In this document: positions 5,191 through 33,725 of the stretch, piece by piece
Layout: each line of letters starts with the position of its first letter
Position numbering within the stretch: position 1 is the first letter of the stretch
Origin: Nemertoderma westbladi
Taxonomy: Eukaryota; Animalia; Xenacoelomorpha
Direction: 5' to 3'
Assembly (NCBI GenBank): GCA_032718475.1
Contig: JAUCBJ010004978.1
Location: 1 to 43,007, forward strand
Length of the DNA: 43,007 nucleotides
Notes under the pieces: model-generated
Databases searched by the model: none
What the model was told of the DNA's origin: nothing
The model's input: only the letters and a program-made list of their open reading frames with translations
Position numbers and translations under genes: made by a program

Positions 5191-6771
5191 TGTTCGCGGT
5201 ATTTCAACTTTCCATAACGCGAGTTGAATATTTTTGTATTTTATTAAAATTGATTATTCCGATATTACTACTGGGTACGGGACCATGGGTTTTGGGCACA
5301 TTCTATAAACTGGGGGCGATTTATGGGCGAACTTTGGGGCAACTTACAGGGTACGGGAATAATTTCATAGTTATAAGGGCCAGGGGGGGATGGAAAATTC
5401 AAGCAGTATTCAGGTTAGCCTGAGTACTATTAGGCCCTGGCCAACTTCCTGCTGCCTGTAGGGGTGGATTTGGTAATGCGCCAGGCCTAAAGGACAAGGA
5501 CTGCCCTTAGCGGTCCCTGGCCAACAGCAGTTATTACGAGACTGAAAAGAACTCGGAACGCTGACTGCTTGTGTCAGGGATTTGCGACGGGAAACGACAG
5601 CCCTTAGTAGCCAAGCCGTTCTGGTTCTCGATGATCGAACCCTTCGGTGTTCGTGAGGGGTGGAACGGACACGCGAACGGGCGGCCGACTAACGACTGCC
5701 CCCTGAGCTAAGCCGTACTGGTTCTCGATGACCGATCCCTTCGGGGTTCGCGAGGGGTGGGACGGACATGCGAAAGGGCTGGCCACAGGACGGGTTTGAC
5801 GAGGACTGCCCTTAGCGGTCTCTGGTCAACGGCAGCTATTACGAGACTGAAAAGAACTCGGAACGCTGACTGCTTGTACCGGGGATCTGCGACGGGAATC
5901 GACGACAGACCCCTTAGCCAAGCCGTACTGGTTCTCAATGATCGTTCCCTTCGGGGTTCGTGAGGGGTGGGACGGACACGCGACGGGGTCGAAAGACAAA
6001 GGACTAGACCCTACTGGCCTACCGACTGTTCGGAGCAGTTTCTCGGCTGCCGAAGCGACTACGAGCCTGAAAGGGACTCGGAAAGCCTAGGTGGGTGGGT
6101 TTCTGCGATGAACCGACGGACCCCTAGCCAAGCCGTTCTGGTTCTCGATGATCGAACCCTTCGGGGTTCGTGAGGGGTGGAACGGACACGCGAACGGGTC
6201 CACCGACACGACAGACTCCTAGCCAAGCCATACTGGTTCTCGATGACCGATCCCTTCGGGGTTCGAGAGGGGCGGTACGGATACGCGACAGAGTCCACCG
6301 ACTGGACCGACCCTTAGCTAAGCCGTGCTGGTTCTCGATGATCGTTCCCTTCGGGGTTCGTGAGGGGTGGAACGGACACGCGACAGGGTCGACCGACACC
6401 GACACTACGGCACTAAGACCAGGACCAAGGGAAAAATCTGGGGAACATTAGGTAGGCTAAAATCTGAGCGAACAGTGGGTAATTAAATAATATACCGTAG
6501 GGATTTATATTATCGTGTATAATTATTTTGAATATTTGGTGTATATTGATTTGGGGAAGCCCAAAATTATTCTTAATCAGGTTCAACAGAGTTCAGTTAC
6601 ATTAAAGAGTATATCCAACTAATGCAGCTTTTTCTCAACCGCAACCCTGCATCTCAGAAATCATTCCTTCTCCAAAATCAATATCCGGTGACTGGCCGGG
6701 GCTCAGTGGTCTGTAAAGTCACGTCTCCAGCATCGGCGTTTTTCCCCCCTGGTGTTGGGATAACGGCAACA
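5191..6771 (+). repeat. 5' LTR of element A
   Basis: tgttcgcggtatttc...gataacggcaaca; matches 17913-19493 with about 10 substitutions and 2 single-base indels counted by eye. Confidence 0.97.
5498..6391 (+). ncRNA. LTR-internal array of structured RNA hairpins (6 k-turn/UUCG units and 3 loop-E/GAAA units); repeated at about 18220-19113
   Basis: Repeated units with pairable arms, cUUCGg and GAAA tetraloops, GAU-bulge/tandem G.A k-turn signature, and substitutions that mostly preserve pairing. Confidence 0.7.
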
Positions 6772-6979
6772 AAATTAAGAATAATTACGGTCAACTTCAA
6801 CTGGTGGAAGTTGAGAATCCTTCAATACTCTTCAAAACTCTCTACGTGCTTGCCAGCACCCACTACGAGGAAACTCTGGTATTTGAGTTGAGACGAAGTC
6901 GTGGTTTAATTAATCAACAAACTCGATCTAACCAACTCGTAGTCGGCAGATCACATATTTGGAGAGTTGTTAACAGGGA

Positions 6980-7171
6980 ATGGAAGTATCGATCACACCC
7001 ATTGATATAATCCAAGTTGAGCCAGGAATCTGGCACGTCGAAGTTGAAGTACAAGGAACGAACGTCGGACGATTCAGGATTACCGTTCGGGTGGTCCAAG
7101 CTGAGTACAATACCTACGAGGAACTGTTTTATGACATCGTGTATCTAGCTATCGACGAGGCGTTACAATGA
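6980..7171 (+). CDS. Short upstream ORF (63 aa) overlapping the gag start (ATGA)
   Basis: ATG at 6980; its TGA (7169-7171) overlaps the gag ATG (7168-7170); sequence looks protein-like but no family is recognised. Confidence 0.35.
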   Translation: MEVSITPIDIIQVEPGIWHVEVEVQGTNVGRFRITVRVVQAEYNTYEELFYDIVYLAIDEALQ

Positions 7172-10100
7172 CGACAAATAACGTATCCGATACCGACGAG
7201 ATGGATCACCACACAGACTCGGAAGCCGACGAGGTACCAAACGTCAAGAACATGACCCGTCGGCTAGGGGCTCTCAAAGGCGGAGTAACCCGAGCGTATC
7301 AACGGATGGAGAAACAACTCAAGGGAGTCAAAACCCCCCTCAATGAGGTACAAACTCAGCTTCAAAGTATCCGAAATATCCTACAGCGGTACGAAAGAAT
7401 GATACAGGCGTACCAAGAGCTCGTTCCCTCCACTGATCAGGAAAACTACCCCAAGTTGGAAGAACACGTTGTACATCTAGATGGGTTCCGCAAACAACAC
7501 CGGAGGACCCTCAGCCTTGTGAGAGGCTATGAAGAACAGTATTACAAGAGGGCTGAAAGAACAGACGCGGAATCAGTACGATCCTCCAGCATCAGGACAG
7601 CAGTACATCGAAAGAGAACTGGGTCCGCTAGAAATCAGCACTCCAGCGCTAGGAGCGAGATATCCGGCTCAGCGCGCAGTTCTCAAGGGGCGCCGCCACT
7701 CCGAGACCAACTGCGAGAACGGAAGGCATTAGCCCTCAAAGCTCGGATGGAAGATGAGTATATTCAACTGCAAGCCGAGCAAGATGTATTAGCCGCCGAA
7801 ACACAAAAGCGAGAGGCCGAACAAGTGGCCGAACGGCAGGCCGAACAACGCGAACAGGAGGCCGAACAACATAGACGAGAGGCCGAACAACATAGACGAG
7901 AGGACGAACGGCAGGCCGAACAACGCAAACAGGAGGCCGAACGGCAGGCCGAACAACGCAAACAGGAGGCCGAACGGCAGGCCGAACAACGCAAACAGGA
8001 GGCCGAACAACGCAAACAGTAGGCCGAACGACGCAAACAGGAGGCCGAACAACGCGGACGAGAGGCCGAACGAGAGATCGAACAACGTAAATGGGAAGCA
8101 GAAATGCGTAAACAACACGCCGAGGCCCAAGCAATTCTCATCCACAAAAAGAATGCAGATATTGCAAAACTCGCGGAATACGAAGCCGCACTTATAGAAC
8201 GAGATATTCAACTCTACGAGGACTGGGAAAGGGATATAGATCAGGAATATGAACCAAGCCCGGTACCGGAATTAGAAAAGTCATTTATACCGACAGCGGC
8301 GAAACTTCCGAAACCCGAGATCCCGCCTATCAAACAGTCTACGCTATCGGCACAAGCACCGGTGTTCCATCCCCCACCGGCTACGCTAAAGAATGAGGAA
8401 CATTATTTCCCATCCAACACCACGACAGCGAGTGTACCCAAGTACGAGCCTGAAAAGGACTCGGAACGGGACGCCACTCCCCGATCTAACAACCCATTTA
8501 CATCCACACCACAAACTCGTAGCCGCGTCATTATTAAAACTCCACCTATTATTGATACATCAAGTATGGGAGTGAGTGCCAATAACTATAACCCTCCGAG
8601 TCACTCCGGTTCAGACGACGTCAGCATCATCCGGGCATTGGAGAATCGCCTTGCCATGCCTAAGATGGAGATTCGCACCTTCGAAGGAGATCCCGTCGAT
8701 TACCTCAGATTCAAGAAACGGTTCTTTGCGCAGATCGGATCAACGGACATAGCCGACGCACAGAAATTGGTATATTTATCGCAATACCTGGGTGACAAAC
8801 CACGCAGAATTATTGCATGTTTTGAAGGAGGTTCTCTTGAGGCATACTATGACGCATGGAAAACTCTAGATAAAAGATACGGAAATACTGGAACTATAAT
8901 TAATAAAACTCTAGAGAGACTGATACAGGACGCGGGATCACTAGGGGACCCACAGAACATCCAGGAATTCTCCGACTCTATGAAGGATGCCTACTATACT
9001 CTGAAACCCTTAAATAAGGAGGACCAGGTGAACAACATTCTAAACCTCCGACAGATCGCCCGGAAGTTTCCCGGATGGCTACAAAGTAAGTGGGCTTATA
9101 AATGTGTAGATCTCCGGCGCAGACATCCAGATCGAGATCCTAGCTTCCTTGAAATGTCGGCATTCCTGTACGATATCTCCGAAGCCATGAATGACTCGAT
9201 GTTTTCAAAACAGAGTCTCGCAAAGTTGGACGGAATAGAGAGCAACTCCAGGAGTAAGATAACCCCTCCGAAACCGAGATTCCGCCCCCCACCGGTGAGT
9301 ACGATGGCCATCACCATGGCCGAGGATTCCGACGACGAAGACTACGAGGAACCGACATCCGCCGAGGAATGGGCATGTTATCTCGCGAGTTGGGCACCCG
9401 AAAGGGAAGGCATCACAAATTCCTTGCTCTGTCTCTTCTGTGGGGAGAAACATAAAGTGGAATTCTGCAGAAAGTTTCAGTTCGCCGAACTCGTCCCACG
9501 CTTCGAGGCGATAATGAAACACCGAGGATGCTTCCGGTGTCTTGGAACAGGTCACTATGTTCGGGAGTGCGACCAAAGATCATGCTGTGCTGTCTGTAAC
9601 GACCAACGCCATCACACGCTCCTCCACATCCCCGCGAACTTCGATTTTACTACCCTCCCCTTTCGGATCGAAGCCAGGCGAAGAGGAGAAACAAACCACG
9701 TCTTCAAAGGAACCCGGACAACCCAACGGAGAGAAACCAACCCGTTTAAAATCTCCACCGATACACCACAAGTAACAAATATTTCGGCCACGATTAATCT
9801 TATAAATCGCCGCTACATGGTCTTCGCAAAGGTAATCCCAGTAAGGATCCAAGGAGTCGGCAAATCTTTGACGACACTCGCGTTCCTCGATAACGGGTCC
9901 GACGGAACCATCATCGACCGGGATTTCCTCGAGCAACTCGGCCTAGAATATGAACCTTGTAAACGGCCCATACAAACCATCACCGATAACAGAGAGGTAG
10001 AGTCCGGGGAGGTGCAACTCCAGATGGAAGGAGTGATGAAGGGCTACGAAACGGTTAAGTTAACCATCAAGAACGCCTTGGTACACACAGACCTCCGGGT

Positions 10101-13100
10101 GCGGTTCCGACAATCAGCCGAGTATGCCCCCCTCATACAATTGGACCGAGACGATGTAGACCTGAGGTGTCCGCAGTTGGACGTAAACCGCATCACCCTA
10201 CTGATTGGACTTGATACACCGGAACTACACATCCCCACCGGAGATATCGCCCGATCTATAAAACAGGATGATGGATTTTATGCTGAACGAACAATAATGG
10301 GATGGACACTCTGCGGCATTAAGGAGGAAACTACTGACACCTATACCTACCTTCCCAAATGTCAGATTAAAGAGAATGCAACCTCTGTGGGTTATTGCTC
10401 AGCTTCGGATCTTGACAAGGATTTGTTTCTGGAAACCGAGAAAACCCAACGAGAGATGACGAAATATTTTAATTTGGAGACCCAGGAGTTCGCGGAAAAG
10501 GACGAAAACCCATCCGAAGAGGACCAATATTGTATGGACATTCTCGACCAGGCCACGTTTAAAGACGGACACTGGTGTTCACCTATGTTATGGAAGGACC
10601 CAAACAAACCAATGGCAAACAACGCCAGCATGGCACTTAGGCGACTTAAAGGGATTCTACGCCGGCTGAATGACCAACCCGAGATAAAGGAGAAATATAA
10701 TACCGTAATCCAAGGATATCTCGATGATGGATTAGCAGAAATGGTACCACGGAATGAACTGCAAGGTGGTAAAAGAACATATTATCTCCCAACCCACTAT
10801 GTAGTAGAAGCCCGCAAAGGTGGGAAAATCCGAGTGGTAAATGATGCTGCCGCTATGTACCAGGGCGAATCCCTAAACAGTCAGCTTTACACGGGACCCA
10901 ACATATATAGTACACTCATCGGGGTATTGATCAGGTTCAGGGAAAACCGGGTAGCATTCACCTGTGACATCAAGGCCATGTTTCATCAAGTTCGTACGTT
11001 ACCAAGAGACTCGGACTGTCTACGTATCCTATGGACGGATAAAACGCTAACTCAACAGGAGATTAGCCAACTCACGATAAAGGACGTAGACGTAATGCGT
11101 ATGGTCGTCAGGATCTTCGGCGCTAAGGACTCGCCGGTAGCATGCAGTGACATGCTAAAGAGGACGGCAACTATGTGCGAAAACGAGTTCCCTCCAACCG
11201 TCATAGAAACCATTCGACGATGCTTCTACGTGGACGACGGATGCGCCGGCGCGGATAATGTGGATGAGGCATATCGGCTAGCAATGGGGATGGTAGAATG
11301 TCTAAAGAAAGGAGGGTTTCCGCTCGTGAAGTTCAGATCCCACGACAAAACACTTATGGAAAAGTTTCCGGAGGACATCCGGCTGGAAAATAACAAAATG
11401 TATTCGGAGGATGTGGAACATCGTGTACTCGGGATTGAATGGGACATAGAATCAGACGAATTCATCTTCAAATATAAACCCCTACCCAAGCCTATGACAA
11501 AAAGGGGATGTTTGTCGATAAAAAGCGCCATCTTCGACCCACTAAATTTCATATCTCCAGTAACCTTGGCCGGAATGAACCTGATTAAGGAAATGTGGAT
11601 AGAAGGACTGGGATGGGACGAAGAGCTCCCCCCACACCTCAGCGTCAAATGGAGAAAATGGACAGAGCAGCTCGAACACCTACATCTTATGCGGATACCT
11701 AGACCGCTCTTCCTCGATAAACTACCCACCGATATCTTCAAGCTCCACACCTTTTCGGATGCTTCGAATACCGGAATCGGCGTAGTCACCTTCTTACGGA
11801 GACTAAGTAACGATGGAAATGGCGATACAAGCTTCTTATTCTCCAAAGCAAAGACAGTATCCGGGGAATTCGTAGCAACGATTCCGAGACTCGAGCTACA
11901 AGCTGCAGTTTGGGCAGTAAGACAGAATCGCATGGTCATGCGGAATCTACGGATCCCCATAGAATCTCAACACTTCTGGGTCGATTCGAGTATAGTTCTC
12001 TATTATCTCCACTCTCCATCACGGCGTCACACCACGTTTGTTGCAAACCAAGCCACGGAGATTAAACAGTGTACCGGCCGAGAACAGTGGCATCACGTGA
12101 ACGGGAAGGAAAACCCAGTGGACTTATCAAGCCGAGGCGCCACCCCAAAACAACTCGGTAAAAATAAACTCTGGCTTACAGGCCCGGAATTCCTACGGCA
12201 GCCACAATTAACATGGAGTACCCGATTCGACCCCGAACTCGATAGCGGAAAATACTCCGAGGACGATAAAGAGATCCGTAAAGTCCATCGAAGCAACGCG
12301 GTGGAAATTTATAGTTGTCTGACTGAGCCTGCAAAGGACTCGGGCAGGCACTATAACGTCGCGACGATCACTCAACTAGCGGCGTCTCTACATCGGTTGA
12401 TCGAGCGAACTTCATCAATGAGACGGCTCGTCCAACACGTTATAACCCTTCGTAACTTCCTACGGTGGAAAAACAACAAACCGATAGTTCAACGGAATAT
12501 ACAAGAACTCATTATCGCGGAGAAGTGTATTGTTAGATATATCCAGAGAGAAAGTTTCCCCGATGAATGGGAACAACTTAGTGCGGGCAAAACATTGAAA
12601 CCGGACAGCCCAGTCTACCAACTGAGACCAATGATGGGAAAGGACGGACTGATCCGACTGAATACCCGGATGGCAAACGCACCGGTCGAATATGAGGTTA
12701 AATACCCGGCGCTTCTGCCCGGAATGTCGACACTAGCTAAGCTATTAATTCTACAATGTCACGAGGACAACCACCACGCTGGACAGAATTGGATTATAGC
12801 TAATATAAGACAAAAATATTGGATCACCCACATCCAGCCACTAATCCGGAAAGTGTTGAAACGTTGCTTCACCTGCAGACGTTACCTAGCACCACCAATC
12901 ACCCAAAAGATGGCCGACCTACCAGCCACCCGTCTACAAGCAGATTCCCCACCGTTCTACGTCACCGGAGTGGACTGTTTCGGACCGTTTACGGTCATCG
13001 AACGACGATCCAACATCAAATGCTGGGGAGCCATCTTCACCTGCCTAAGGTCTAGGGCAATTTACCTAGATATCGTGGTAAATCTGACACAACACGCATT

Positions 13101-13932
13101 CATCAACGCTCTGCGTCGGTTCGTGGCGAACAACGGGACATGCCGCCACATGTATTCCGATAATGGTACAAACTTTGTGGGAGGAGAAAGAGAACTTAGA
13201 GAGGCGATCGAGGGATGGTTTACCGATAACACCGCATCCCAAGTCTGGAAGGAACACCAGATACAGTGGCACTTCCAGACCCCCTTAGCACCCCATACGA
13301 GCGGGGTATGGGAGAAACTGATCGACCTAGTGAAACGATCCATGCGCGTCGCTCTAGGCGATACCCGGGTAACCCATGACACCCTCCGCACAACATTCTG
13401 CGAGATCACGGCTACCCTGAACAACCGACCCATTGTCCCTATCCGCGACGACCCCACAGACCTGGAGCCCCTCACTCCTAACCACATACTGGGGAGACCC
13501 AAAACCCACGTTCTCCCGGAAACCATGTTCCCGGATCCCAACGAGATCGCGAAACATACAAACTGGAAAAAGGCCCAAGCGTTGGCAGCGCATTGGTGGA
13601 GAATTTGGGCCCAGGAGTACCTCATAACCCTCCGGACCAGGAGGAAATGGAACAACACCTACCGGAACGTCGCAGTTGGCGACATGGTACTAGTTAAAGA
13701 AGATCTCAAAGACCGCGTTCACTGGCCTGTGGCGCGGGTCGTGACCATACACCCAAGCAAAGACGGACTTGCGAGGACTGTGACGATACGAACGGCATCG
13801 GGCCACTACCAACGCCCTATCCAGAAGCTGTGCCTTCTTGAAGGCAATGACAGTGGTGATTCTACGAGAGGTGATAAGTTCCCTACTCAAGATCCTGCTG
13901 CGGACATTGGTGACAATTACAAACCCGTGTAA
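7168..13932 (+). CDS. gag-pol: BEL/Pao Gag-Pol polyprotein with one in-frame TAG at 8020-8022
   Basis: ORFs 7168-8022 and 8104-13932 share a frame. Motifs: gag FEGDPVDYLRF (about 8680); three Cys/His knuckles (9430-9630); protease AFLDNGSD (about 9880); RT DIKAMFHQV and FYVDD (about 11225); RNase H LHTFSDAS, TIPRLEL, FWVDS; integrase HHCC, GVDCFGP, SDNGTNF, GVWEKLI; C-terminal GDMVLV...WPVARV...RPIQKLCLL. Confidence 0.95.
7810..8075 (+). repeat. Coding tandem repeat in gag (21/33-bp units, EAERQAEQRKQ coiled coil)
   Basis: Repeated gaggccgaacaacgcaaacag / gccgaacggcag units. Confidence 0.9.
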
Positions 13933-14210
13933 CCCTTCTCATCATGTTGACAAACTCTTTTTAACTGTGATGTATCGACAACAAATTATGGACCCCCCTT
14001 AAACCAACTGTAACCACGCAATGGTATTTGTGTTTCCTCGTGTGTTATGTGGAGTCCAGCGTCACCCTGCAGATGTTTCGACTGACGCAGGGTCGTTTAT
14101 GCATTGTTTACCCTGATTTTGGTCATCGGGACCAACGATATTGGATTATTGGAAATGGTAAAGATTTGAAGTGGAATTCATTGTATTCATTGCAGTATGT
14201 TATGTTGTCC

Positions 14211-14621
14211 GTTGCGTGCGCAGTTCGGGGCGTAGGCGGTGTAACGAGTCCAGCTGTAGATCCCGGATTGCCGCGCAACACCCCCTCTATCCCGTTATTC
14301 TGGTGGGTCCATGGTGCATCCACATGACTTCGACGATAGAGGGTTTTATGTTTCTCAGTCGCGTTATTCTGGTGGGACCGTTGCGTGGATTTTGGGGCGT
14401 AGGCGGTGTAACGAGTCCAGCTGTAGATCCCAGAATGTTGCGTAATCCCATCCCACATGACTTCGTCGACTGAGCTTTATGTTGTTGGGAGTGTTATTCT
14501 GGTGGGTCCCTGGTGCATCCACGTGACTTCACTCCCAGCGTCGTCATTGTCCGTTACGTGCGCAGTTTGGGGCGTAGGCGGTGTAACGAGTCCAGCTGTA
14601 GATCCCAGATTGCCGCGTAAC
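14211..14621 (+). ncRNA. Triplicated covarying stem-loop downstream of pol
   Basis: Three copies (14211-14279, 14380-14446, 14553-14621) with an invariant 38-nt core and compensatory changes in the enclosing stem. Confidence 0.65.
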
Positions 14622-15176
14622 ACCCCTTCCACGACAAAGATTAACCAAAGAAAATGATTGAATATAGTTGGAAATGATGAAAAGGATCAGACAACTCTAC
14701 TATAAACCTGAATGATGACGCGTATGCTGATGAAAATGTAATGATGCGCACCCTGGTGCTGCGCTTATAACCAATGATGATAGCCGGGGGGCTATAAACC
14801 CAATGATGATGTGGAAATAAATAAATGTGAAATAAATGGTGGAAATAAATGTGTTGAAATATATGTGGAAATAAATGAAATGAGATGGAATAATAATGAA
14901 ATGAAAAAAGACAAAAAAAAGGTATAAAAAAGTCTAAAGAAAAGAATTGAAAAAAAGAAAGGACAAAAAAGTCATAACACTGGTTGGATATTAATGTATA
15001 GTTATAGTAACTGTAAATGCTGAATGTATTAGCAATAAGATGATAGATGCCTATATAGCAATGTTATTAATAAACTGAATTAAATAAAAAACTGAATTAT
15101 TCTGCTATCGCTATAGTTTCAGACTTTCTGGACTTATAATTAACTGATCTAATTTGTAACGGATATAATCGTAAAT

Positions 15177-17750
15177 ATGGACCCAAATCGCCAAATTATC
15201 GGCGAATTACGTAACACGATAGATCTACTGGAATATTCGCAACCTGGATCCCCTGACTTTGATACAAATTGGAGCACCCTGCTAAATGAGAACGTGCGAG
15301 TCGTTAAATTCACCGGGCGAGAGGGACCGGATTCCAAGAATCTACGAGCCCTCCGGTTAGCCGATGCTAGTACGAGACTGAAAAGAACTCGGAACGCAAA
15401 GGCAACCGGAGGGGACGATTCGTCGTTTTGGGAAACGTTCCGGCAGAGCGTTTACAGATCCCAATGTTTGATCTACGACAACGAGGGAAACGCGACGCCC
15501 ACCTCGAAAGCGATTACGTTGGCGAGATGTCAAAGTTTCGTCGACGACAAGAGTACGTACCTCGCCCACTGGGGAAACCTGTCGGAGTGTACGGCGACGC
15601 TTCGAGAGGAACGCATATCGATTATCCAAAACCGCGACGACTACCAGGAAAAGTACGGGGCGAAAGAATACGGTCGATCCTTAGTCGTCGTCCTCGGAAC
15701 CCTGGACGGTTTGGTACTGGTGTGCCGAATATTCCCGACACCCAGACAGGAAGTGCAGGCAGCCGGAGCGATCTGGTTGCTACCTCCGGAAATCCAAAAG
15801 ATCCTCTTCGACTTCGACGTCATTAAAATCGGGTCGGATATCAAGGCGGACGTCCGGAACGACTACGCGAACGCTCCTGCAGGAAGAAACCGACGAGACG
15901 ACCTCAACGCCCTTAGCCATTGCATCGACACTCAAACGCTACTAGCCTGATTACGATTCGCCGAGTTCATGCGAGGATTCCAAGAGGTGAGACCGACGAA
16001 ATCCGGGATCGGCTACCTCGCTGTGCTAAACGGCGGCATCAACTTCAAACCCCAGAAATTCCGGGACTATAATAAAATATATGGTGGATACCCGGGATTA
16101 GAAATAAAGAGCGAGCGAGAGGGTCGATGGAAGGACGTTGATCGGAAGTGGACGATACACCAAAGGTGGGAGAATCCCGATCGACGGAACTACGTTTACG
16201 TCGTTATGGAATGCTACACCGTCGCTAAGTTTATCTGTAAAACTCTCGATAACCTTATTACGGCGGTCCCCCTTTCCTTCGTCGACTACGACTGGAACGA
16301 GGTCATACACCACGCGTTCAAAGCGGTCGAGAACATTGCACCGGGAGAGACTAAACGCTCGCCGTTATCGATTCCTGGGACGAGAGCGGACCTTACGACA
16401 TCCCTACGATTACCGAACTTCTCGGTGCAGAGGAGCCTCTGATCTCTTCGGAAGGGGAAGAGATATGGCTAAACGAGGGTGTTCTACTCTCCACCCCGAA
16501 GCGACAACTCGAGCCGGTGGCCGCTTACCAACCGGCCGCAAACGGGTTGCCCCCACCGTACCAACTACGGAAGCAGGCGTTTCCTCACCACTCGGCTTCG
16601 GTAGCCCTGCGAGGGAGTTGGTTACTACCTTCGCGTTAAACGACTTCGGCGTTACGTGCCAAAGGTTATCCCCGTATCCTTTCCCGGGTGGCGAAGACTG
16701 GTCGTCGGAGATTCCGAGTACCAGCAATCAACAGACCCGCTCAGCGATATTGGTCGAGAAGGGCCCCAGCGCTGCGCCGACTCCCGACGATCTCCTCGGA
16801 ATCCCTCCGTCGAAAACCCCGGCACCTCTTTGCCGACAAGCGGTGGCTACTACACCCTCCGTTCCTCAGGATCCCATGCGACTAACCCGTTGGTACGCCG
16901 AGCAAACTGAATGGATCCACCGCCAGAGACGGTCGTCCGAGTTGAGACCAGCGGGACACAAAGAAGGAAAAGCCTAGCATTCCGCGGGCTACCGACCACC
17001 GCGAATATTCCGAAGAGTGACCGACGACTCGAATATTACGTCGGCCTCCCGATTCCGATATTCCCCGGTCGAGAGATGCAATTGGAGGTTTGCGGCAACT
17101 GCGGTTCGGAACAGTGCCCACGCGGTAGAAGGAATCGGGTTACCGATTCGTGCCTCCAGCTCATCGGGATACTCTATTGCCCATACTGCGCGACATCGGG
17201 CCACGACGTTTCCGTCTGCCCGATCCTATATAACCTCTGTACCACATGCAGTTTCCGTGGACATTCCTCTAGCCCCCGCTGCTATATCAAATGTCCAACC
17301 AAAGACGTTACCGCTATGGGAAATATGGTCATGTTTGAAACATACGCAAACAGCCACTTAAAGACCAAGGTTCGGAGAAACGCTCGGAATATCGCGCAGG
17401 AGATGGCGTGCGGGTATTTCTCCTTCCCGGAACGCCTCCACACGTCGGCCATGCTACCTTTCCATTACGTGGATCTGCTACTGAGCGCCGGATTATTCGG
17501 TCCATTTGAAGTCATTAGACGATTATACTCGTATAAAGAGGAGTTCGGTGACGGAGATTGGTTCCTAGAGGCACGCAAATCTGAGTTGGAAAGACGAACC
17601 GACATGATCCCTATGCCATCGAAAGGAAGAGCCGCCAGGAGACAAGCCGAAGCGTTACTCACGATGGATGTGGACGCTCCTCTACCAGCCATAGCGATCG
17701 ATGAGAGTCGACGGGCGAAGAGACGAAAGGTGTATCAGAAAAAGAAATAG
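15177..17750 (+). pseudogene. Extra ORF of element A: DnaQ/WRN-like 3'-5' exonuclease-like domain, linker, Cys/His zinc cluster, basic tail (about 860 aa if repaired)
   Basis: LPPEIQKILFDFDVIKIGSDIKADV, CIDTQTL, SGIGYLA and W...YVYVVMECY follow the WRN/RNase D exonuclease motif order; CGNCGSEQC, CPYCATSGHDVSVC and CTTCSFRGH...C; ends RRAKRRKVYQKKK. One TGA (15948) and about 3 inferred frameshifts. Confidence 0.7.
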
Positions 17751-17903
17751 TGGATCGGGATATTCCAGGAACATTTATCGAACATTTATTTATACAAACT
17801 CTAGGCCAAATTAATTAAAACTATGCAATATTAAATTTGGGTTTTTTATATTGGGAATGACCTACGCAAACTCAATCGACCGACAGACTTCACGAAGGTC
17901 ATT

Positions 17904-17911
17904 GGGGGGGA
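17904..17911 (+). promoter_or_regulatory. Polypurine tract (plus-strand primer) of element A
   Basis: ggggggga ending 1 nt before the TG of the 3' LTR. Confidence 0.8.
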
Positions 17912-17912
17912 C

Positions 17913-19493
17913 TGTTCGCGGTATTTCAACTTTCCATAACGCGAGTTGAATATTTTTGTATTTTATTAAAATTGATTATTCCGATATTACTACTGGGTAC
18001 GGGACCATGGGTTTTGGGCACATTCTATAAACTGGGGGCGATTTATGGGCGAACTTTGGGGCAACTTACAGGGTACGGGAATAATTTCATAGTTATAAGG
18101 GCCAGGGGGGGATGGAAAATTCAAGCAGTATTCAGGTTAGCCTGAGTACTATTAGGCCCTGGCCAACCTCCTGCTGCCTGTAGGGGTGGATTTGGTAATG
18201 CGCCAGGCCTAAAGGACAAGGACTGCCCTTAGCAGTCCCTGGCCAACAGCAGTTATTACGAGACTGAAAAGAACTCGGAACGCTGACTGCTTGTGTCAGG
18301 GATTTGCGACGGGAAACGACAGCCCCTTAGTAGCCAAGCCGTTCTGGTTCTCGATGATCGAACCCTTCGAGGTTCGTGAGGGGTGGAACGGACACGCGAA
18401 CGGGCGGCCGACTAACGACTGCCCCCTGAGCTAAGCCGTACTGGTTCTCGATGACCGATCCCTTCGGGGTTCGCGAGGGGTGGGACGGACATGCGAAAGG
18501 GCTGGCCACAGGACGGGTTTGACGAGGACTGCCCTTAGCGGTCTCTGGTCAACGGCAGCTATTACGAGACTGAAAAGAACTCGGAACGCTGACTGCTTGT
18601 ACCGGGGATCTGCGACGGGAATCGACGACAGACCCCTTAGCCAAGCCGTACTGGTTCTCGATGATCGTTCCCTTCGGGGTTCGTGAGAGGTGGGACGGAC
18701 ACGCGACGGGGTCGAAAGACAAAGGACTAGACCCTACTGGCCTACCGACTGTTCGGAGCAGTTTCTCGGCTGCCGAAGCGACTACGAGCCTGAAAGGGAC
18801 TCGGAAAGCCTAGGTGGGTGGGTTTCTGCGATGAACCGACGGACCCCTAGCCAAGCCGTTCTGGTTCTCGATGATCGAACCCTTCGGGTTCGTGAGGGGT
18901 GGAACGGACACGCGAACGGGTCCACCGACACGACAGACTCCTAGCCAAGCCATACTGGTTCTCGATGACCGATCCCTTCGGGGTTCGAGAGGGGCGGTAC
19001 GGATACGCGACAGAGTCCACCGACTGGACCGACCCTTAGCTAAGCCGTGCTGGTTCTCGATGATCGTTCCCTTCGGGGTTCGTGAGGGGTGGAATGGACA
19101 CGCGACAGGGTCGACCGACACCGACACTACAGCACTAAGACCAGGACCAAGGGAAAAATCTGGGGAACATTAGGTAGGCTAAAATCTGAGCGAACAGTGG
19201 GTAATTAAATAATATACCGTAGGGATTTATATTATCGTGTATAATTATTGTGAATATTTGGTGTATATTGATTTGGGGAAGCCCAAAATTATTCTTAATC
19301 AGGTTCAACAGAGTTCAGTTACATTAGAGAGTATATCCAACTAATGCAGCTTTTTCTCAACCGCAACCCTGCATCTCAGAAATCATTCCTTCTCCAAAAT
19401 CAATATCCGGTGACTGGCCGGGGCTCAGTGGTCTGTAAAGTCACGTCTCCAGCATCGGCGTTTTTCCCCCCTGGTGTTGGGATAACGGCAACA
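17913..19493 (+). repeat. 3' LTR of element A
   Basis: Direct repeat of 5191-6771, same length, directly after the PPT. Confidence 0.97.
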
Positions 19494-19689
19494 CTGATCT
19501 TACATGCAAAAATTTAGGGTCCAATACAAAAGTATAAAAATTTTATAGGCTATTCTTTAACCTATCTTATTTTTCGTTATTTTTGATTTAATCACAATTA
19601 AAAAAATATAATTTATCCAGCGTTTAGTCATCAGCTTTACAGCCATGTTTTCCCTTTGCAGCACGGGGAGCTCCTCAACAGTGGCAAAG

Positions 19690-19718
19690 GATGTTGGCCC
19701 TTAAAAGGGCCGTTTTGG
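19690..19718 (-). promoter_or_regulatory. Histone mRNA-type 3' stem-loop
   Basis: Minus strand CCAAAAC-GGCCCU-UUUA-AGGGCC-AACA fits GGYYYU-UYUN-ARRRCC with an A-rich 5' flank; no histone CDS is adjacent. Confidence 0.65.
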
Positions 19719-20225
19719 TTTGAGTTCAGTTTCATTATGCCACAGAATCACGATCCTCTCTAAAAGTAACATATCTGATTCTGTCAACCATACCGTTTTC
19801 TTCACAGTCATCGAAGATTGCACTGGAACTTGTCATTTTAATTACATCTGTTAGGCCTAATTCAGTAAAATTACCAAAGAAACGCTAATACCGGTAACTG
19901 AATACTGTAATATATTGCAATACAGCAAAAGTCAGGCAGTTATAACTGTTTAAACAGGGTTGCAAATCTGATGACAAACGCTGGATAAATTATATTTTTT
20001 TTAAATTGTCATTAAATCACAAATATTGAAAAGTAAGATGATAGGTTTAAAGAATTGCCTATAAAATTTTTATACTTTCGTATTGGACCCTAAACTTTTG
20101 CATGCAAGCTCATAATTCAATTATCTTTCGAATATTACACTAATTATATTACTATAATTAATTAATTACAATAATTAATTATATACACTATTATATTACA
20201 CTAAAGTACATGTCTGGCAGTTTTG

Positions 20226-21106
20226 TACGGTGGCTGAAAGCGGCCAAACAATATTAATTAAGCGTTTTTTTTTTTAATTTCAACCCGGGTTGAAAATAAT
20301 ATCAACCCGGGTTGAAAATAATATCAACCCGGGTTGAAAATAATATCAACCCGGGTTGAAAATAATATCAACCCGGGTTGAAAATAATATCAACCCGGGT
20401 TGAAAATAATATCAACCCGGGTTGAAAATAATATCAACCCGGGTTGAAAATAATATCAACCCGGGTTGAAAATAATATCAACCCGGGTTGAAAATAATAT
20501 CAACCCGGGTTGAAAATAATATCAACCCGGGTTGAAAATAATATCAACCCGGGTTGAAAATAATATCAACCCGGGTTGAAAATAATATCAACCCGGGTTG
20601 AAAATAATATCAACCCGGGTTGAAAATAATATCAACCCGGGTTGAAAATAATATCAACCCGGGTTGAAAATAATATCAACCCGGGTTGAAAATACTTGCA
20701 TGTGACCAATGACAATTCGTTCTATGAACTCTTTTGTTGATGAGGTGTGGCGGGAAATATAAATATAATATATATATGTAGGTATCACTCAGCCAATGCA
20801 GCAATGCAATGTCCGACTGTAGGCCTACTGCAAACAACTGGAGTAAACAGAAGTATAGCGATACATATATATTTACATTTATATTTCCCGCCACACCTCA
20901 TCAACAAAGAGTTCATAGAACGAATTGTCATTGGTCATATGCAAGTATTTTCAACCCGGGTTGATATTATTTTCAACCCGGGTTGATATTATTTTCAACC
21001 CGGGTTGATATTATTTTCAACCCGGGTTGATATTATTTTCAACCCGGGTTGAAATTAAAAAAAAAAACGCTTAATTAATATTGTTTGGCCGCTTTCAGCC
21101 ACCGTA
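20226..21106. mobile_element. Non-autonomous foldback DNA transposon, IS3EU-like
   Basis: TACGG...CCGTA termini; long near-perfect TIRs; 6-bp TSD gttttg (20220-20225, 21107-21112), which is single in the uninterrupted opposite arm of the host MITE. TAY..RTA ends with a 6-bp TSD match IS3EU. Confidence 0.75.
20280..20692. repeat. 22-bp tandem array (19 copies) with the 14-bp palindrome TCAACCCGGGTTGA; 5 inverted copies at 20951-21052
   Basis: Identical caacccgggttgaaaataatat units, counted directly. Confidence 0.95.
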
Positions 21107-21999
21107 GTTTTGGTTGGCCATGGGGGGGCAATCATTATGGAACACCCGGTATTGACTACCGTGTTTTGTTTAGTTAGAATAACGTGCCACTATAAACTGC
21201 TCTTTTCCCTTCATTTAAATATTTAACATTGAGTGAGATATTATTTCATGGACTAACTTACTTCCGAGAATGAGGCCGTGAGGATCTACCAGAAAGAATT
21301 TAACTCTAAACTTTGTTGGTTACAGTGGTACGTCATTCTAACCAAAACAATAAACTTAAGTCAATATAATATTTTTATTTTTGAGAATAATCAGCTGCCA
21401 TTTGCGTCAAATTTTCGTCGAACTTCCAGTGTGTAAAAAGTTGTAGGACATTAATTTAATCAGAAATGAATATTCTAGAAACGTTACAGAGGATTTTATC
21501 TTCCATCCCCTTTGCTTCAGTTACATAAATATGTAACTACAATATTGTAACATGTCATCAGTCATTATTATGAATTCCGATATCATCGTAATACAACTAA
21601 GCCAATACATTAATGTGCCTACATGATAAAATTGTGATGACTGTATTTGCCATTCATATCTTCAGTTTCCACGTGGAACAGCCAGTTCAGAAACACGACC
21701 ATCACCATCACTAAGCAACAAGGTTAATTTTTATTTTCTGTTACATGGAAGGCTGAGATAGCACCACATTAACTCTCAAGGTTGAACACTCAATAATTAT
21801 GCAATCCGTTTCTTTAATCCCCCAAGCAGAAGCTTCTCATATCGCTCGGCCCGGGATCAAACCGGGGACTTCCAGCTAGATGCAAAGTTTCCACTGTACC
21901 ATATAGCTATTACAATGCAAACATACAAGATGATTCATAAAATAAAAGGAATCATACATAATTAGTACAATTATTATGTTATTTACAATATAAACTAAC

Positions 22000-26653: not shown

Positions 26654-27900
26654 TGTAAAGTACAGTAGTATACCGCCTACCGGATCCTAGTAATGAAGTA
26701 CGTTACTGTAGAATCCAGCATTGTATACGGGCTCGTACAGTATCTGACAAGAAATCCCAGTCCAGGGTGTCTAAATAAATAGATACTAAGTATACAAACT
26801 ACTACTGGCGAGGAACGGAGCCTGGTGTCTATTCTAATACTTGGACGAATCAAATGCCCAGGCTAACTAGACAAACAGGATGCCCGGCCTCTAACCGGTG
26901 AGGCAGATGTACAGTCTACAGATACAGACCAAACTCACGGGAAAACAATCCCCGCGTAGCGAATCCTAACTATTGCTAATGGACCTAAAATACTGTAAAC
27001 TTGCTGCGCTGTGATTTATATATATGGGTATAATACGAGCTAGTGGGACAACAGAACTAGCGTAAAACAATACTGCCGACAGGAAAATAGCAGTCAAAAG
27101 GGGTGCCTCTACACCTGAGTAAAACAAATACCAAATTTCTCCTCAAATAATAGAATATTCTTACCGTAAGTCTGCAGCTTAGATCTCAAGACGTGTGTGT
27201 GTGTGTGTGTGTGTTAAGATAAAACAATTTTGGTGTATCGCCGTTATACTAGGTTTTGGTGATTTTATCAAAATAACAATGCTGGGTGCTAGCTACTCGA
27301 ATAAGCTAGTCGCACGCTGTAGGCGCAATTCTTATAAACTGACGTCAAAAGGGCTCTCTCCTCCTTCATTCACAACTCAACCGGGCAATTACGGTGTTAG
27401 TAACTACACCCGTGATCGGCACTAATACCAGATTCTGATTGTGAGATAAGGAAATAGGTGTTAATTTACTAGCTAGCTGTAGTAGTAGTGCCGTAGTAGT
27501 AGTAGTAGCTGATCTGGTATATAATTTGATTCTAGAATTTTGTTACTGCGGTGGGCTGCAGTAAATACCTATCAGTACTTTGCAAGGGCGCGGTAGGATG
27601 TTAGTAACCTCCCTTAGCCAAATGTGTTCTGGTAGCAGAAAACTGCCTCTTGCCTGATCAAATACTTTGGAATCAGACAGGTGAGTCAAACTATAAGGCC
27701 TACAGAGCTAACCGGTACTGTACTGTCAGTACTGCAAATCACCAAATTATAAAGCGTGCTATTCACACCTAAGTGCACTTGCGCAAACTGACGAACAGCA
27801 ATAGCTCGCACCTGTAGGAGATACAGGTTGATCCGGGTTTTTCCCTGTCTCAATCTGAGATATTTGATCCTAAATTTTACGGCGTCCCAGGATGGCGTAA
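26654..27900 (-). repeat. LTR-like direct repeat of element B (3' LTR)
   Basis: Colinear with 37002-38200 from tgtaaagt to ggcgtcccagga; many more differences than the LTR pair of element A. Confidence 0.85.
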
Positions 27901-28234
27901 ATACTAAGTACTGCGTAAATATAAAACCTTCGTACATACATACATACAAATACGGATTTACTATCTAATTTATCAAGGCTTAGTGCATAAAATATAAAAC
28001 TTCGGTAATCCAAATTAAACAAATTAACAAATTAAGGCAAATAATTTCAAATCCTTCGTAATACATATAATATTGCAAATATACATAATAAATTTATCAA
28101 ATGAAATCAGTTCAATATAAACAAAACATAATACGCTAAAATAATTTCCAAATTGAGTTGTGTTAATTTCCAAAAGTGTCCTCCAAGATCTTAAAAGTTT
28201 GTCCTGCTGGTTTCTAGACATCATCTCCTGAGCG

Positions 28235-29885
28235 CTAATCGATAACGGTCCCAATCATGCGCTTAGTAGGATCGGGTTGAGCCTCTGTGACGCTAGGAGG
28301 GAGTTTTAGGGGTGGGACCAACCCGTCCGCCGTCACCTCACTCTCCGATGTCATCTTAACCCTCATTGGTTCGGGCAAAGCCAATCCTGCTTTAAAACCA
28401 TTTTCGCGCAAGACGTCTGCCTCGTCCAATATACACCAGGTCACGCGTTTGTAGTAAAATGCGCTCCGATAAGCCCAAGCAATCGAATGCCAGGCTCCCC
28501 GATTCCACTGTTCGATTCGCAGTTTGTCGAACTCTCCAGCGGGTATCCATGGTTCACCATGGTCTGAAAGTTCCATGTATTCTCATTATCTGGGTGAACC
28601 AGTAGGAAATAGTCCCATACAAACTTAAAGCCACTATCCAATGGCAATATATCTAGTACCTCCTGTCAGTTTCGAATGTGCCATCTCCGATCCATAATCA
28701 AATCGTCCGCATCAGATATCCTTGCAGGATGCAAGGTGCGATATCCGTCCCCATGCAATCAACTTCCTTTAAGTTGGTAAAATGTGGATGCACGTTGCGT
28801 ACGATTTTCTGGACGATTATTCTACGCAACTCCGCCGCCTCTAATACATCGCCAAACGTTACCGATGGGAGGAAATCCAGGTTCGAAATGATCTCTGGAT
28901 GCTCCACTATGGGGATCTCGTAGGTCGTATCCTCTCGAGGCGGTATGCTGATAGGAAATTGGTTGTCCTCGCGACCGGCACTATCGCTTGGGTAGAGTAG
29001 AGTAGATTCTCGCATCATCTCGACGTGAAGTATCTGTAGTTGAGCGAAGGTAATGCTATCAAAGAGTTCGGGTGTCATTTCCTTGGGTTCGGTTTGATCC
29101 TGGGATATCCAATAGAATGGTAGGCTCGCGAGCATTCCACCGAACTTCTCAATCTTACCTTTGTCGTACACCTTGTATCCCCTATATAGGCTAAGAGCTT
29201 CCCGCTTCTCCTGTGTCGACTTGTTGGACTCGTCTACTACCATATTGTAGATGTCCAGTTCGACTAGTTTGGGTTCGTAAATCACAATCTACCCCGCGTT
29301 CGGTCCACTCATCTTAAACGAGTGATACGGATTCATCAAGGGGTATCCACCTTCTTGATAACGCAGACTCTGATGGTTTGGGCATCGCGCTAATATCGGC
29401 TCGGGGTTCTCCGTGTTCAAGTGCATAGGAATCGCATTGTCTTTCGCACGCATACATTCTCCACATTTATAGAACAGTTTATAAATGGAGAATGCTTCCT
29501 TAGTCTCCAGGTCCACTCCTCGAGCACGTCTATAAAGGTGCATCCAATCGAATTTGTCCCTAGCTGCAAGCTAGGGTTCCCTCGCCGTCAAATATTGCAG
29601 CATGTGATATAATCGGCGCATCTCTGTGTCGGTACAGTGTGGATACTTGTTTGGACTTGGTAGGCCTGCGGGCCTTCCGGTGAGTGTCTCCCTTTGTGTA
29701 ATGGGTTTGTCTGAGTCCTTAAGCACTTTATTAATCTCCACGGTCTTACCTTTACTGTCAGAACTCAGTGAGTTGACTGGTAGTAATGGTTTCAGCTCTA
29801 TGGTATCAATGTGTTCCTGTGGGCTCGTAAGCTTCCTAACGTTAGTCATGCGTTTAGCCATAGGCTGTAAGTCTAGTATTTTCAA
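28235..29885 (-). pseudogene. Degenerate extra 3' ORF of element B, unknown product (about 550 codons)
   Basis: ORFs 29571-29885, 29289-29543 and 28698-29285 share a frame separated by single TAGs, followed by frameshifted 28441-28647 and 28235-28576; contains CGEC...CPNH. Confidence 0.6.
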
Positions 29886-30049
29886 TTAGCGGAGTGTGAT
29901 ACCTGTATTTACATTTGGATGGGCACAACCCATACTTGCAATACCTGTAACCACACTATCAAGGAAGTCAAAGTAGGTAAGTTGGTAATACCTAGTTTAG
30001 TACTAGTCTGCTCCAATGGGTTTGCAGCGTCATAGCACATGTCATTACT

Positions 30050-30520
30050 TTCTGGTTGATAGTTTAGTGGAAAGTCTGGTAGACAGTCTGGTGAGGCGTC
30101 CGGCGAACAGTCTGGTGAGATGTCTGGTGAAACATATCACGAAACATCCGGCGAAATGTTCTGTCATAAGTCCCATGGAAAGTCTGGCATAGCATCTGGC
30201 AGAGTGTCTGGTCTAAAGTCTGGTGGACAGTCTGATGGAACTAAATGTTCAATGAAATGAACTGGAACGAAGTGTCTGGTGGAAAATTTGGCGAAATTTC
30301 CGGTAGACAATTGGTCAAAAGATCCAAAAAACAATCTGGCAAAGAATCCAGAGAATAATCTGGTGGACAGTCTGGCGAATAATCTGGCAAGATGTTTGGT
30401 GAACAATCTGGTGAACAATCTGCTGAAATCCCCCACGGAACTTCCGGTGAAAGATTTGTTGGAACGTCTGGTCGAATGTCTGGTGAGACATCTGGCGTAA
30501 TGTCTGGTCTATTGTCCAGG
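30050..30520. repeat. Degenerate 12-bp tandem repeat (tctggtgaacaa-like) inside element B
   Basis: 12-nt period; reads PDxx repeats on the minus strand. Confidence 0.8.
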
Positions 30521-30639
30521 TCATTTGATTTTATTCGTCCTTGTTTCCTCTTGACCTTGGTGCTGGCTTTTGCCTTCGACTTGACAACAGTATCAATTTT
30601 TATCTCAGCACCTTCCCGGCACATTCATTCATCCGATGG

Positions 30640-31725
30640 TCATTGTAGGAAGTCAGGTCCTTTAAACCAGAAGGACTTATTGTCCGGTTTACAAAAGTCT
30701 ATGGGTCACATTCCCCATGACACGATGTCAGCTGGGTTCAGTTTCCCTGGGCAGTGACGCCAGTCTTGTTTGAGCGACCGGTCTATTATTTCAGCCTGCC
30801 TGTTGGCCACGAAAGTCTTGAACTGAAACGTTTCATTATTGATGTACCAAAGTATCAACATTGCGTCAGTCCAATACGTGACTTTCAAGTTAGCCTCCAA
30901 TTTGCGCTGAACTAGACTGACGATATCGGTGGATATTGTCCTGGCTTGTAGCTCTCTCCGAGGTACTGTCATATATTTCAAAGGCATTGTTTTGGCCCTT
31001 GAAGTAACGAAAGACACCTCGTAACTGTAGGATGTCACTTGTCGTCTAAGGTATAGAGTAACCCCCAGCCCATCCTTGCTAGCGTCACTAAAGCTGTGAA
31101 GCTCTAGATCCGCAGGAAAGGTGGCCTGTAAAGGAAAGTATACCCTGGGTATTGTATAGTCCTGTAGGAGTGTCAGTTGAGCCTCCCAGTCCCTCCATTG
31201 TTCGGCTGGCTTTTCTGGGATGGGATCTTCCCATTCCAGTCCAGCCTGCCAGATGCTGCGGAGTATAATCCTAGCATGTAGGATCACGGGACTGATGAAA
31301 CACAGTGGGTCATACAAATGACTCATTGTTGATAAGCAGGTCCTGTTGGTGAGAGGTATCGTCTGGTCGTTGGCCCTTACGCGTACCCTAAAGTTGTCGG
31401 TGTTGGGGTCCCAACTTAATCCTAGGACTTTGGTCGTAGGCAGAGGTTCTAGATCTAGATCTAGGTCACCTCTGCTACCATCAGTAGGGTCATATGAGTT
31501 CACTAGTTCGGAGTTATTGGAAGCGAATTTGGTGAGGTGGAATCCGCCCTCAGCGAGACAGTTCTGGAGTTGGTATGCTACGGTTGTAGCACACTCCAGA
31601 GTGTCACAACTCTTGAGGCCATCATCCATGTAAAAATCCCGCTCCACTGTCCGAACTACTTCTGGGTCTAGTTTGTCACGTCGGTCTAATGCTGTCTGTT
31701 TCAGGGCAAAAACTCTTACCTGCAT
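30640..31725 (-). pseudogene. pol: Element B RT C-terminus and RNase H
   Basis: FYMDDG, GGFHLTKFASN, KVLGLSWD, YDPL, LHSFSDAS, TVPRREL, YWTDA, WRHCPGKLNPAD. Confidence 0.93.
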
Positions 31726-32397
31726 TTGGTAAGTTTCTGGCGGAAGATCTAAATTTCAGTCTGAAGTTGCGCATTGTATTGCATATGGGCCGTCTCATCA
31801 TGCAACAGCTGCTGCCGTATTGACTTAAGTCTTTTCAAGACAAGCGGGTAGTTGTTAACAAGCTTGAGCCATGGCACCACAACATCCCAACTTCGTAGTG
31901 GCCATCGTAGTGGTTGCTGGTAGGCTTGCAAGCCTTCCAGTGTCACTAGTCAGCATCGAAACGTTGTGAGGCGGTTTGACAACCTTTTGATCTGTTGGTA
32001 GGCTCGCAAGCCTTCCAAGATCAGCGATCGGTGTCGAAGCCTTGCAGATGGGGTCAACGACCTACGGATGTGTCAGTAGGCTCGCAAGCCTTTCAAGATC
32101 CTCGTTCGTTGAGACATCCACAGCATCAACCCTTTGGTCTTCGGTAGTCGATACAACCTGTTCCGCTGCAAGTAGCTGTAAGTTAGAGGTCCGTGTGGTC
32201 TCGTCCAAGTCTGTTACGTCGGTGTTGGTAGCGACGTAAGACTGTCGTGGTACTGTCTGTACAGTGGGACCACAGGAATGTGAGGGAGAATTGACTAACG
32301 TAGTAGTTAATAGACTACATGTGCTGAAAACGTCGTCCTCCTGGTCACTTACCTCTAGTGAACGCACAGGCGCTCTCGTATACCAACCCATGGGAGT

Positions 32398-33716: not shown

Positions 33717-33725
33717 ATGGGAGTT

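Follow-up and report, generated by a model that had tools for sequence, protein, structure and literature searches.

Downstream of the gag-pol gene of a Bel/Pao LTR retrotransposon, positions 14211-14621 of the window (the whole stretch of DNA analysed, 43 kb) comprise an array of two hairpin modules, M1 and M2, which as plus-strand RNA folds beyond shuffled sequences with a z of -4.47. The controls reached a z of only -1.38 for the minus-strand RNA and of -0.53 and -0.34 for the DNA. There is little doubt that the array is a real RNA structure, and it looks like a selected one: its fold and its pairing are observed, while its function is a matter of inference. Judged from the sequence, it appears in kind to be a cis-acting structured element of the retroelement RNA, with a build that is new within the searches made.

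The host element and the layout of the array

The retrotransposon spans 5191-19493 of the window and comprises the following parts, with the array inside the non-coding gap 3' of gag-pol.

5191-6771, plus strand: 5' LTR with TG...CA ends, paired with the 3' LTR by alignment
7168-13932, plus strand: gag-pol of Bel/Pao type, from Pfam domains and reading frames; an in-frame stop at 8020-8022 breaks this copy
14654-15063, plus strand: AUG-dense, A-rich tract with 30 AUGs against one CAU, every frame at most 15 codons long
14816, 14831, 14844 and 14870, plus strand: AATAAA signals inside the A-rich tract
15100-15122, plus strand: candidate splice acceptor, pyrimidine-rich, with a CAG end at 15120-15122; its use as an acceptor is putative
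15177-17750, plus strand: extra ORF with an in-frame stop at 15948-15950 and frame breaks between about 16,400 and 17,000
17913-19493, plus strand: 3' LTR, from alignment to the 5' LTR

In gag-pol, Peptidase_A17, DUF5641, DUF1759 and Integrase_H2C2 were above the Pfam cut-off, and the occurrence of Pao peptidase, DUF1759, DUF5641 and integrase together in one gag-pol between LTRs identifies a member of Bel/Pao. The closest gag-pol relatives are 35-39% identical, and those with names are animal. The two LTRs are the same in 1572 of 1583 aligned columns (99.3%) and the 5-nt flanks of the element agree at four of five letters; the element carrying the array is young. After pol follows a non-coding stretch of 1.24 kb and then the broken extra ORF. 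In DNA runs from a single organism, short contigs in their hundreds to thousands map to the array region with graded likeness; they suggest a family with many copies, although the read depth gives no copy number.

Several further features were noticed in the surroundings. Right after the 5' LTR (6772-6800) no primer site for a tRNA was obvious by eye. A second, older Bel/Pao element with LTRs about 94-95% alike lies on the minus strand at 26654-38080, and its extra frames at 28235-29288 faintly resemble the exonuclease blocks of the extra ORF of the first element, with no significant BLAST match. Just beyond the 3' LTR, a match resembling the histone 3' stem-loop was found on the minus strand (19671-19716; E of 0.0086, under the gathering score), and 20187-21145 is a tandem array of 22-nt near-palindromic units with one inverted block.

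The array begins 279 nt past the gag-pol stop and is laid out as M1-M2-M2[M1]-M2-M1, the brackets marking the nested copy.

14211-14279, plus strand: M1 copy 1, a long G-U-rich stem capped by the invariant core 14227-14264; 25 pairs, 5 of them G-U; fold z of -4.15
14284-14342, plus strand: M2 copy 1, an 8-bp stem, a U-rich internal loop region and a short upper stem
14354-14474, plus strand: M2 copy 2, its tip replaced by M1 copy 2
14380-14446, plus strand: M1 copy 2, stem diverged and core unchanged; 24 pairs, 8 of them G-U; fold z of -1.30 alone
14484-14539, plus strand: M2 copy 3; fold z of -3.63
14553-14621, plus strand: M1 copy 3; fold z of -4.50; two compensatory pairs compared to copy 1

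Pairing and variation of the modules

The sequence-only reading had described an invariant 38-nt core in triplicate, and its starts at 14227, 14394 and 14569 indeed head identical sequences. A search with a 32-nt part of this core, allowing up to three mismatches, returned three matches in the window compared to 0.00 expected from 100 shuffles. The double changes claimed for the enclosing stem were likewise recovered, since M1 copies 1 and 3 (69 nt) differ at four positions, which make up the two base pairs 14214/14276 and 14226/14265; four differences placed at random would coincide with two of the 25 M1 pairs with a probability of 3.5e-4. The stem letters of M1 copy 2 are as quoted before. 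The second motif, M2, occurs three times as reported, with starts at 14294, 14363 and 14493 and 3' arms at 14320, 14453 and 14519, a G replacing an A in the 3' arm of copy 3, and in the middle M2 the whole of M1 stands where the tip would be. The outer stems of the three M2 copies differ in sequence yet all pair, over 8, 8 and 10 bp. Concerning the register of M2, the earlier proposed form with a 5-bp stem and a 4-nt bulge is better in isolation (-7.2 compared to -4.6 kcal/mol), whereas a form with two internal loops wins in the fold of the full array. No known motif could be matched to M2.

From other copies of the element 11 substitutions were listed, of which five lie in stems and keep the pair, four are unpaired and two fall into a 3-bp helix. 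This helix is broken by the two changes, but it is present only in the minimum-energy fold and absent from the centroid. The summed energy cost of all 11 substitutions was equalled by 1.6% of random sets, while the run of five compatible changes has by itself a chance of 7%. Both core variants from other copies (14588 and 14591) sit in a 7-nt insert described below. In three runs, the listed variable places made up 1.7-2.1% of the array and no less than 5.8-8.3% of the 1.6 kb around it, a 3-5x sparser variation which may be partly an artefact, as repeats shorten contigs. Contig joints at 14184-14547, 14192-14293 and 14193-14493, each seen in one contig per run with 25-38 letters on the short side, weakly hint at copies with fewer modules. 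The earlier interpretation as a modular functional RNA can be retained, because only the plus-strand RNA beats the shuffles and the variants from other copies mostly preserve the fold; of the suggested functions an export element is still the best guess, those as IRES and ribozyme are not upheld, and the Kt-23-type reading of the core set out below had been missed.

Searches for relatives of the array returned nothing of weight. A search of 481 nt against Rfam 15 gave only two chance matches with E values up to 10, and no match lay across the array in a search over 15.5 kb. Pattern scans with M1 and M2 gave no match in viral contigs, the M1 pattern none in metagenome contigs and blastn none against phages; a search for related loci via the C-terminus of pol led to 30 pattern matches in metagenomes, none of them confirmed, and to no usable locus in viral contigs. 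These viral, metagenome and phage collections hold little animal DNA. The repeated modules were not found in the neighbouring Bel/Pao element either. As no homologue was found outside the element family, covariation rests on the three copies and the short contigs. Known classes were considered as well: an exoribonuclease-resistant RNA was dropped, as no pseudoknot or three-way junction was seen; SECIS, SRP Alu and box C/D RNA were dropped for their different layout and for want of an Rfam match; and the single-stranded motifs of Musashi, CFIm25 and Pumilio were set aside, since their consensus is too short for a test.

The likeness of the copies could also be explained by neutral duplications, held alike by gene conversion or hairpin-templated repair. 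Each module has just three copies, the 7% chance of the compatible run is not small, and templated repair can generate paired changes. However, DNA repair would eliminate G-T pairs, while the M1 stems retain 5, 8 and 5 G-U pairs; the stems do not fold beyond shuffles as DNA; and the array varies less than its surroundings, subject to the possible bias by repeats. A neutral origin is therefore regarded as highly improbable.

The core of M1: kink-turn or ribozyme

Kt-23 of the Thermus thermophilus 16S rRNA is reported as a kink-turn of non-standard type that folds with Mg2+ alone and needs no protein; L1 is G, L3 is A, the pairs are G1b-A1n, A2b-U2n and U3b-G3n, a G stands at -1n and 4b-4n is non-Watson-Crick (PMC2790904). 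Comparison of the M1 letters with these published rules leads to the following assignment, given for copy 1; for copies 2 and 3, 167 and 342 have to be added.

14231-14261, plus strand: predicted Kt-23-type kink-turn, from letters, with the geometry inferred
14232-14234, plus strand: predicted non-bulged strand, from letters (1n-3n at 14234-14232)
14235-14237 with 14253-14255, plus strand: predicted C-stem of three pairs
14256-14258, plus strand: predicted bulge, followed by 1b-3b at 14259-14261, from letters
14238-14245, plus strand: helix-23-like loop, followed by the 7-nt insert 14246-14252, from side-by-side comparison with 16S

All three M1 copies carry eight of eight Kt-23 core letters (L1, L3, 1b-3b, 1n-3n), and also the G at -1n and the non-Watson-Crick 4b-4n of Kt-23 in helix 23 of T. 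thermophilus (PMC2790904, PMC5061560). Three C-stem pairs adjoin the bulge, where at least three are required, the first and kink-proximal one being a U-G wobble. M1 does not have the continuous non-canonical helix of a simple kink-turn, for its lower helix contains two extra letters on the non-bulged strand beyond 3b-3n. Complex kink-turns with such letters are on record (PMC5061560), and on account of them M1 is filed as Kt-23-like only.

A descriptor that combined the core letters with a C-stem of 3 bp and a lower stem of 4 bp, with up to two skipped letters and thus loosened to admit M1, matched the three M1 copies alone on the plus strand of the window and one place on the minus strand. 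It matched once in each of three 16S rRNAs, at helix 23, and in none of four 23S rRNAs, compared to 7 and 5 of 20,000 shuffles. A loosened twister-sister descriptor was nearly as rare (20 and 42 of 20,000), so that small shuffle counts for such post-hoc patterns prove little; and since tens of motif classes were viewed by eye, the true surprise of the Kt-23 fit lies nearer 1/30 to 1/100.

As in 16S helix 23, the loop of M1 starts after a short G-C stem, which is common to most of the 13 helix-23 sequences compared (13 of 15 16S loci fit the pattern and two were left out; seven distinct sequences were used to build a model). While the C-stem of helix 23 directly closes an 8-nt loop, M1 shares six of these eight letters and continues with the 7-nt insert; the agreement has a probability of 0.7% at that register and of 5.6% at any. 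Besides the insert, M1 differs from helix 23 by one extra C-stem pair and the two extra lower-helix letters, and it occurs three times over and in retrotransposon RNA. Homology of M1 to helix 23 was rejected by the covariance model of the seven bacterial sequences, which gave 18 weak matches in the window and none at M1, and by plain alignment of the core to seven rRNAs, which was equally good in 66 of 300 shuffles. Neither M1 nor M2 nor the LTR units gave a significant local alignment with rRNA. In the energy model a rival register of the kink region with C-G and G-U pairs is 2.4 kcal/mol better, but this model conceals the kink in genuine helix 23 as well. The printed helix 23 of yeast 18S rRNA differs on both kink strands (PMC5148605), so that M1 is nearer to the bacterial form than the helix 23 of a eukaryotic host probably is, and mimicry of the host helix would be less direct; human and mouse helix 23 are reported to retain the A-U pair (PMC2790904).

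Other repeated units of the element also resemble RNA motifs. Each LTR contains six copies of an 88-nt unit (5601-6397 and 18324-19120) with a UUCG hairpin above kink-turn letters. The letters of a standard kink-turn were found in six of six units, with a 3-nt bulge, G-A and A-G, followed by U-U, C-C or C-A, by a descriptor so loose that it matched the plus strand of the window 49 times. Since these letters are independent of M1, they make a kink-based design in the element more plausible. In the units 91.7% of the cells pair, with covariation not above shuffles, and their second internal loop presumably resembles the 11-nt tetraloop receptor. A GAAA-capped hairpin on a bulged-G-like loop was seen at 5535, 5840, 6060, 8443 and 15371 and at the 3' LTR counterparts, thus three per LTR, one in gag and one in the extra ORF, in different reading frames and with unrelated outer stems. 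At 15369 nine consecutive letters are common to the sarcin-ricin loop of four 23S rRNAs; the alignment of the hairpin to rRNA was not significant, and its pattern gave no match in viral contigs.

The sequence-only reading had also considered an unknown ribozyme and had found no fit to hammerhead, HDV, twister or pistol. The latter is borne out by Rfam 15, in which these and other families including hatchet remained without a match; the former is not, as no Rfam ribozyme appeared at E up to 10 and the nearest class, twister sister, fails when looked at closely. M1 might, from its letters, be a junction-less minimal ribozyme of twister-sister or LINE-1 type cutting between 14259 and 14260. This was suspected because five letters of loop L1 and eight letters of the SL4 loop have counterparts in M1: G5, C6, G59, A63 and U64 of L1, the first four of which were taken as a mark of the class, and eight of nine SL4 letters with a 3-nt insert (PMC5660989). 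A 5x6 internal loop as in twister sister (RF02681; PMC5660989) and in the related LINE-1 and OR4K15 cores (PMC11620745) can be drawn, with the five shared letters and a similar hairpin loop. The two zipper pairs are preserved in M1 through double changes, positions 7 and 62 of twister sister are reported to tolerate change (PMC5660989), the two-loop core can cleave alone (PMC11620745), and viruses are described as using ribozymes for translation (PMC13725137). Compared to this, neither RF02681 and Rfam nor a model from 36 phage ribozymes matched M1 on the plus strand, while RF02681 as a positive control was found at 16 of 20 phage loci. A natural set was gathered from 229 pattern matches with the L1 pairs left free, of which 106 failed the P4 check, 17 were without the 5' strand and 106 were kept. 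Among these kept matches A8 stands with U61 in 103 and G9 with C60 in 102, the swapped pairs of M1 occurring in none, and the spacing from P2 to SL4 is 16-22 nt in 104, compared to at most 1 nt in M1. M1 has no three- or four-way junction by which SL4 could dock on L1, and near-complete double-mutant scanning of the LINE-1 ribozyme gave no pairing signal at the two zipper pairs in the data presented in PMC11620745. Three cuts in mid-genome would moreover harm an element with LTRs 99.3% alike, and the cleavage product would still meet the 30 AUGs. M1 thus departs from twister sister by four changed conserved letters, the absent junction and the absent model match, and we consider such cleavage very unlikely. 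As side observations, twister-sister ribozymes occur in tandem in gut bacteria and phages, with up to four within 1.7 kb, and three of the 106 natural matches share with the LINE-1 core a U at position 7.

On the letters, the kink-turn would require no change in the published core, while the ribozyme would require four near-invariant letters to be changed and the junction to be lost. Altogether, our judgement inclines slightly towards the top of M1 folding as a Kt-23-type kink-turn.

Proposed function and alternatives

The chances that the array serves as a protein-landing site for unspliced RNA are, in our view, about even. A more specific version, by analogy a kinked, multivalent array working like retroviral export elements, is put forward as a tentative proposal with somewhat less weight. 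In this model the top of M1 would kink as a Kt-23-type turn carrying a helix-23-like loop, and the three M1 and three M2 hairpins would offer landing sites for host RNA-binding proteins. First candidates would be uS11, which is reported to bind helix 23 with micromolar affinity (PMC4019466), or a protein of the L7Ae family, as kink-turns are described as protein-binding sites (PMC5061560); L7Ae contacts a G at 2n (PMC5061560) that M1 does not have. The extra ORF would be expressed from an mRNA of its own, probably a spliced one that resumes at 15123; in rotifer LTR elements, spliced messages are said to give rise to the ORF3s (PMC5408684). If so, the array would be present only in RNAs that keep gag-pol, and the bound proteins could keep the unspliced RNA stable and direct it out of the nucleus, or help it avoid splicing. 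The first AUG past the candidate acceptor is the one at 15177; a scan of the leader for a splice donor yielded none that stood out. A host-protein landing array is favoured by the combination of the need of such RNA to escape retention and decay, the retroelement precedents, and the protein binding of kink-turns and of helix 23.

Retroviruses and musD possess structured RNA elements for export, with lengths of 160-1400 nt (PMC11379458). The array resembles the MPMV CTE, the musD MTE (412 nt) and the MER11 element in that all consist of repeated stem and internal-loop modules over a few hundred non-coding nucleotides of a full-length retroelement transcript (PMC11379458, PMC4338338). The three are, however, vertebrate elements with no sequence likeness shown to the array, and the accessible portions of both papers describe no kink-turn in them. 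Cer1 of C. elegans with its CERV protein (PMC10309623) is likewise an invertebrate LTR element with an extra protein that must export unspliced RNA; it is a separate element with a G-protein-like extra protein, and the sections consulted do not describe its RNA element, whereas here an RNA element is seen from sequence. Closest in the extra ORF are bdelloid rotifer LTR elements, whose ORF3 follows pol and likely has a DEDDy exonuclease fold with a Cys/His motif (PMC5408684), although no sequence homologue was found and RNA modules are not described in the available part of that paper. Within the literature searched, with most subscription papers outside, neither an RNA element of Bel/Pao nor a kink-turn array in a retrotransposon turned up, and no structured cis element was found described for a Bel/Pao element.

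The product of the extra ORF contains a Cys/His cluster and an Arg/Lys-rich (basic) tail. ESM Atlas leads were PF01612 (0.92) and a CCHC-type motif (0.88), both under the recognition mark, and judging from these models a DEDDy-type exonuclease fold with a Cys/His cluster is likely. Three sequence searches gave no homologue, no Pfam match of weight was obtained, no solved structural relative was found (best E of 0.16), and the single-sequence structure model had a pLDDT of 33. The array could be part of an IRES for this ORF, as the sequence-only reading had suggested, being upstream, structured and modular. It is, however, separated from the start at 15177 by 555 nt with the 30 AUGs, and because these AUGs, none of which opens a frame longer than 15 codons, precede the extra ORF, an IRES is unlikely; the final 113 nt before 15177 are AUG-free and contain the candidate acceptor. 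Among all readings considered, this one is judged the least probable. The AUG count was reached by 0 of 2000 mononucleotide but 411 of 2000 dinucleotide shuffles. Within the tract, four boxes of AUGAUGA at 14670-14810 are accompanied by short hairpins, by ends that resemble TATAA and by a weak Rfam C/D match (E of 0.87); one of these hairpins (14751) reuses the M2 tip.

Three further functions compete with a host-protein landing array. The modules could be architectural, with kinks, loops and receptors that fold the genomic RNA into a compact or dimeric form, which the element's own Gag would package without a host export factor. Units resembling 3D motifs recur in the element, such as the six kink-turn-like ones per LTR and the GAAA-capped hairpins with their different outer stems; M1 and M2 stand 3:3 in three arrangements; the M1 loop is, as read from the sequence, complementary to the U-rich strand of M2 over 4-5 letters; and Kt-23 folds without protein, as already cited. 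Since loop-loop contacts have no covariation support, helix lengths in the nested copy would probably not bring both loops together, and retroviruses usually have their packaging signals close to the 5' end, this explanation is considered unlikely, though worth keeping in mind. The position of the array, 279 nt past the gag-pol stop and ahead of the four AATAAA at 14816-14870, would suit a 3'-UTR element that enhances translation of gag-pol, shields from nonsense-mediated decay or stabilises a 3' end before an internal poly(A) site. The genomic RNA would carry about 5 kb after the gag-pol stop, and Rous sarcoma virus is reported to counter such decay with a stability element (PMC10309623). On the other hand, an AATAAA cluster is expected in an A-rich tract and no Rfam match was found. 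A poly(A)-binding triple helix, too, needs longer U-runs than the 2-letter ones of M2. Such a role seems rather less probable still than an architectural one.

A response element for the extra protein of the element itself, as the RRE for Rev, would have a protein from a spliced mRNA license export of the unspliced RNA. Precedent is given by Cer1, whose CERV protein comes from a spliced mRNA, contains a Cys finger and a basic localisation signal and is required for export (PMC10309623), and the extra ORF with its Cys/His cluster, Arg/Lys-rich tail and candidate acceptor is in line with this. But the best lead for the extra protein is an exonuclease fold and not CERV-like, no link between this protein and the array was found, and the neighbouring Bel/Pao element has extra ORFs yet no repeated modules, which leaves this alternative with a slim chance.

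A wider interpretation regards the retrotransposon RNA as built of rRNA look-alikes, with three helix-23 mimics, six standard kink-turns per LTR and bulged-G hairpins; it is speculative, and we hold it to be improbable. M1 would then capture uS11, the LTR kink-turns would capture proteins of the L7Ae family and the bulged-G hairpins would be reminiscent of the sarcin-ricin loop; in this guise the unspliced genome might pose as a pre-ribosome and either evade splicing and nuclear retention or recruit ribosomes. An element in the intron of yeast RPS14B reportedly resembles helix 23. RPS14B intron structures are cited as bound by the protein of that gene and as limiting splicing (bioRxiv 10.1101/2022.07.22.501175), and this mRNA structure, bound by uS11 and restraining splicing, may serve as a working model for rRNA mimicry, although it is a single copy in the gene of the protein itself and not in a mobile element. 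No rRNA-mimicry system of a mobile element was found in the literature searched, mostly without subscription papers.

Little is known about the export and stability of unspliced RNA in invertebrate LTR retrotransposons, for which the work on Cer1 found a protein. The array is short, repeated and accompanied by natural variants, and is thus directly testable. If M1 kinks, it would be a natural Kt-23-type turn outside rRNA, on which the published rules of folding could be tested. Binding of uS11 or of an L7Ae-family protein would make this a mobile element that exploits ribosomal-RNA mimicry.
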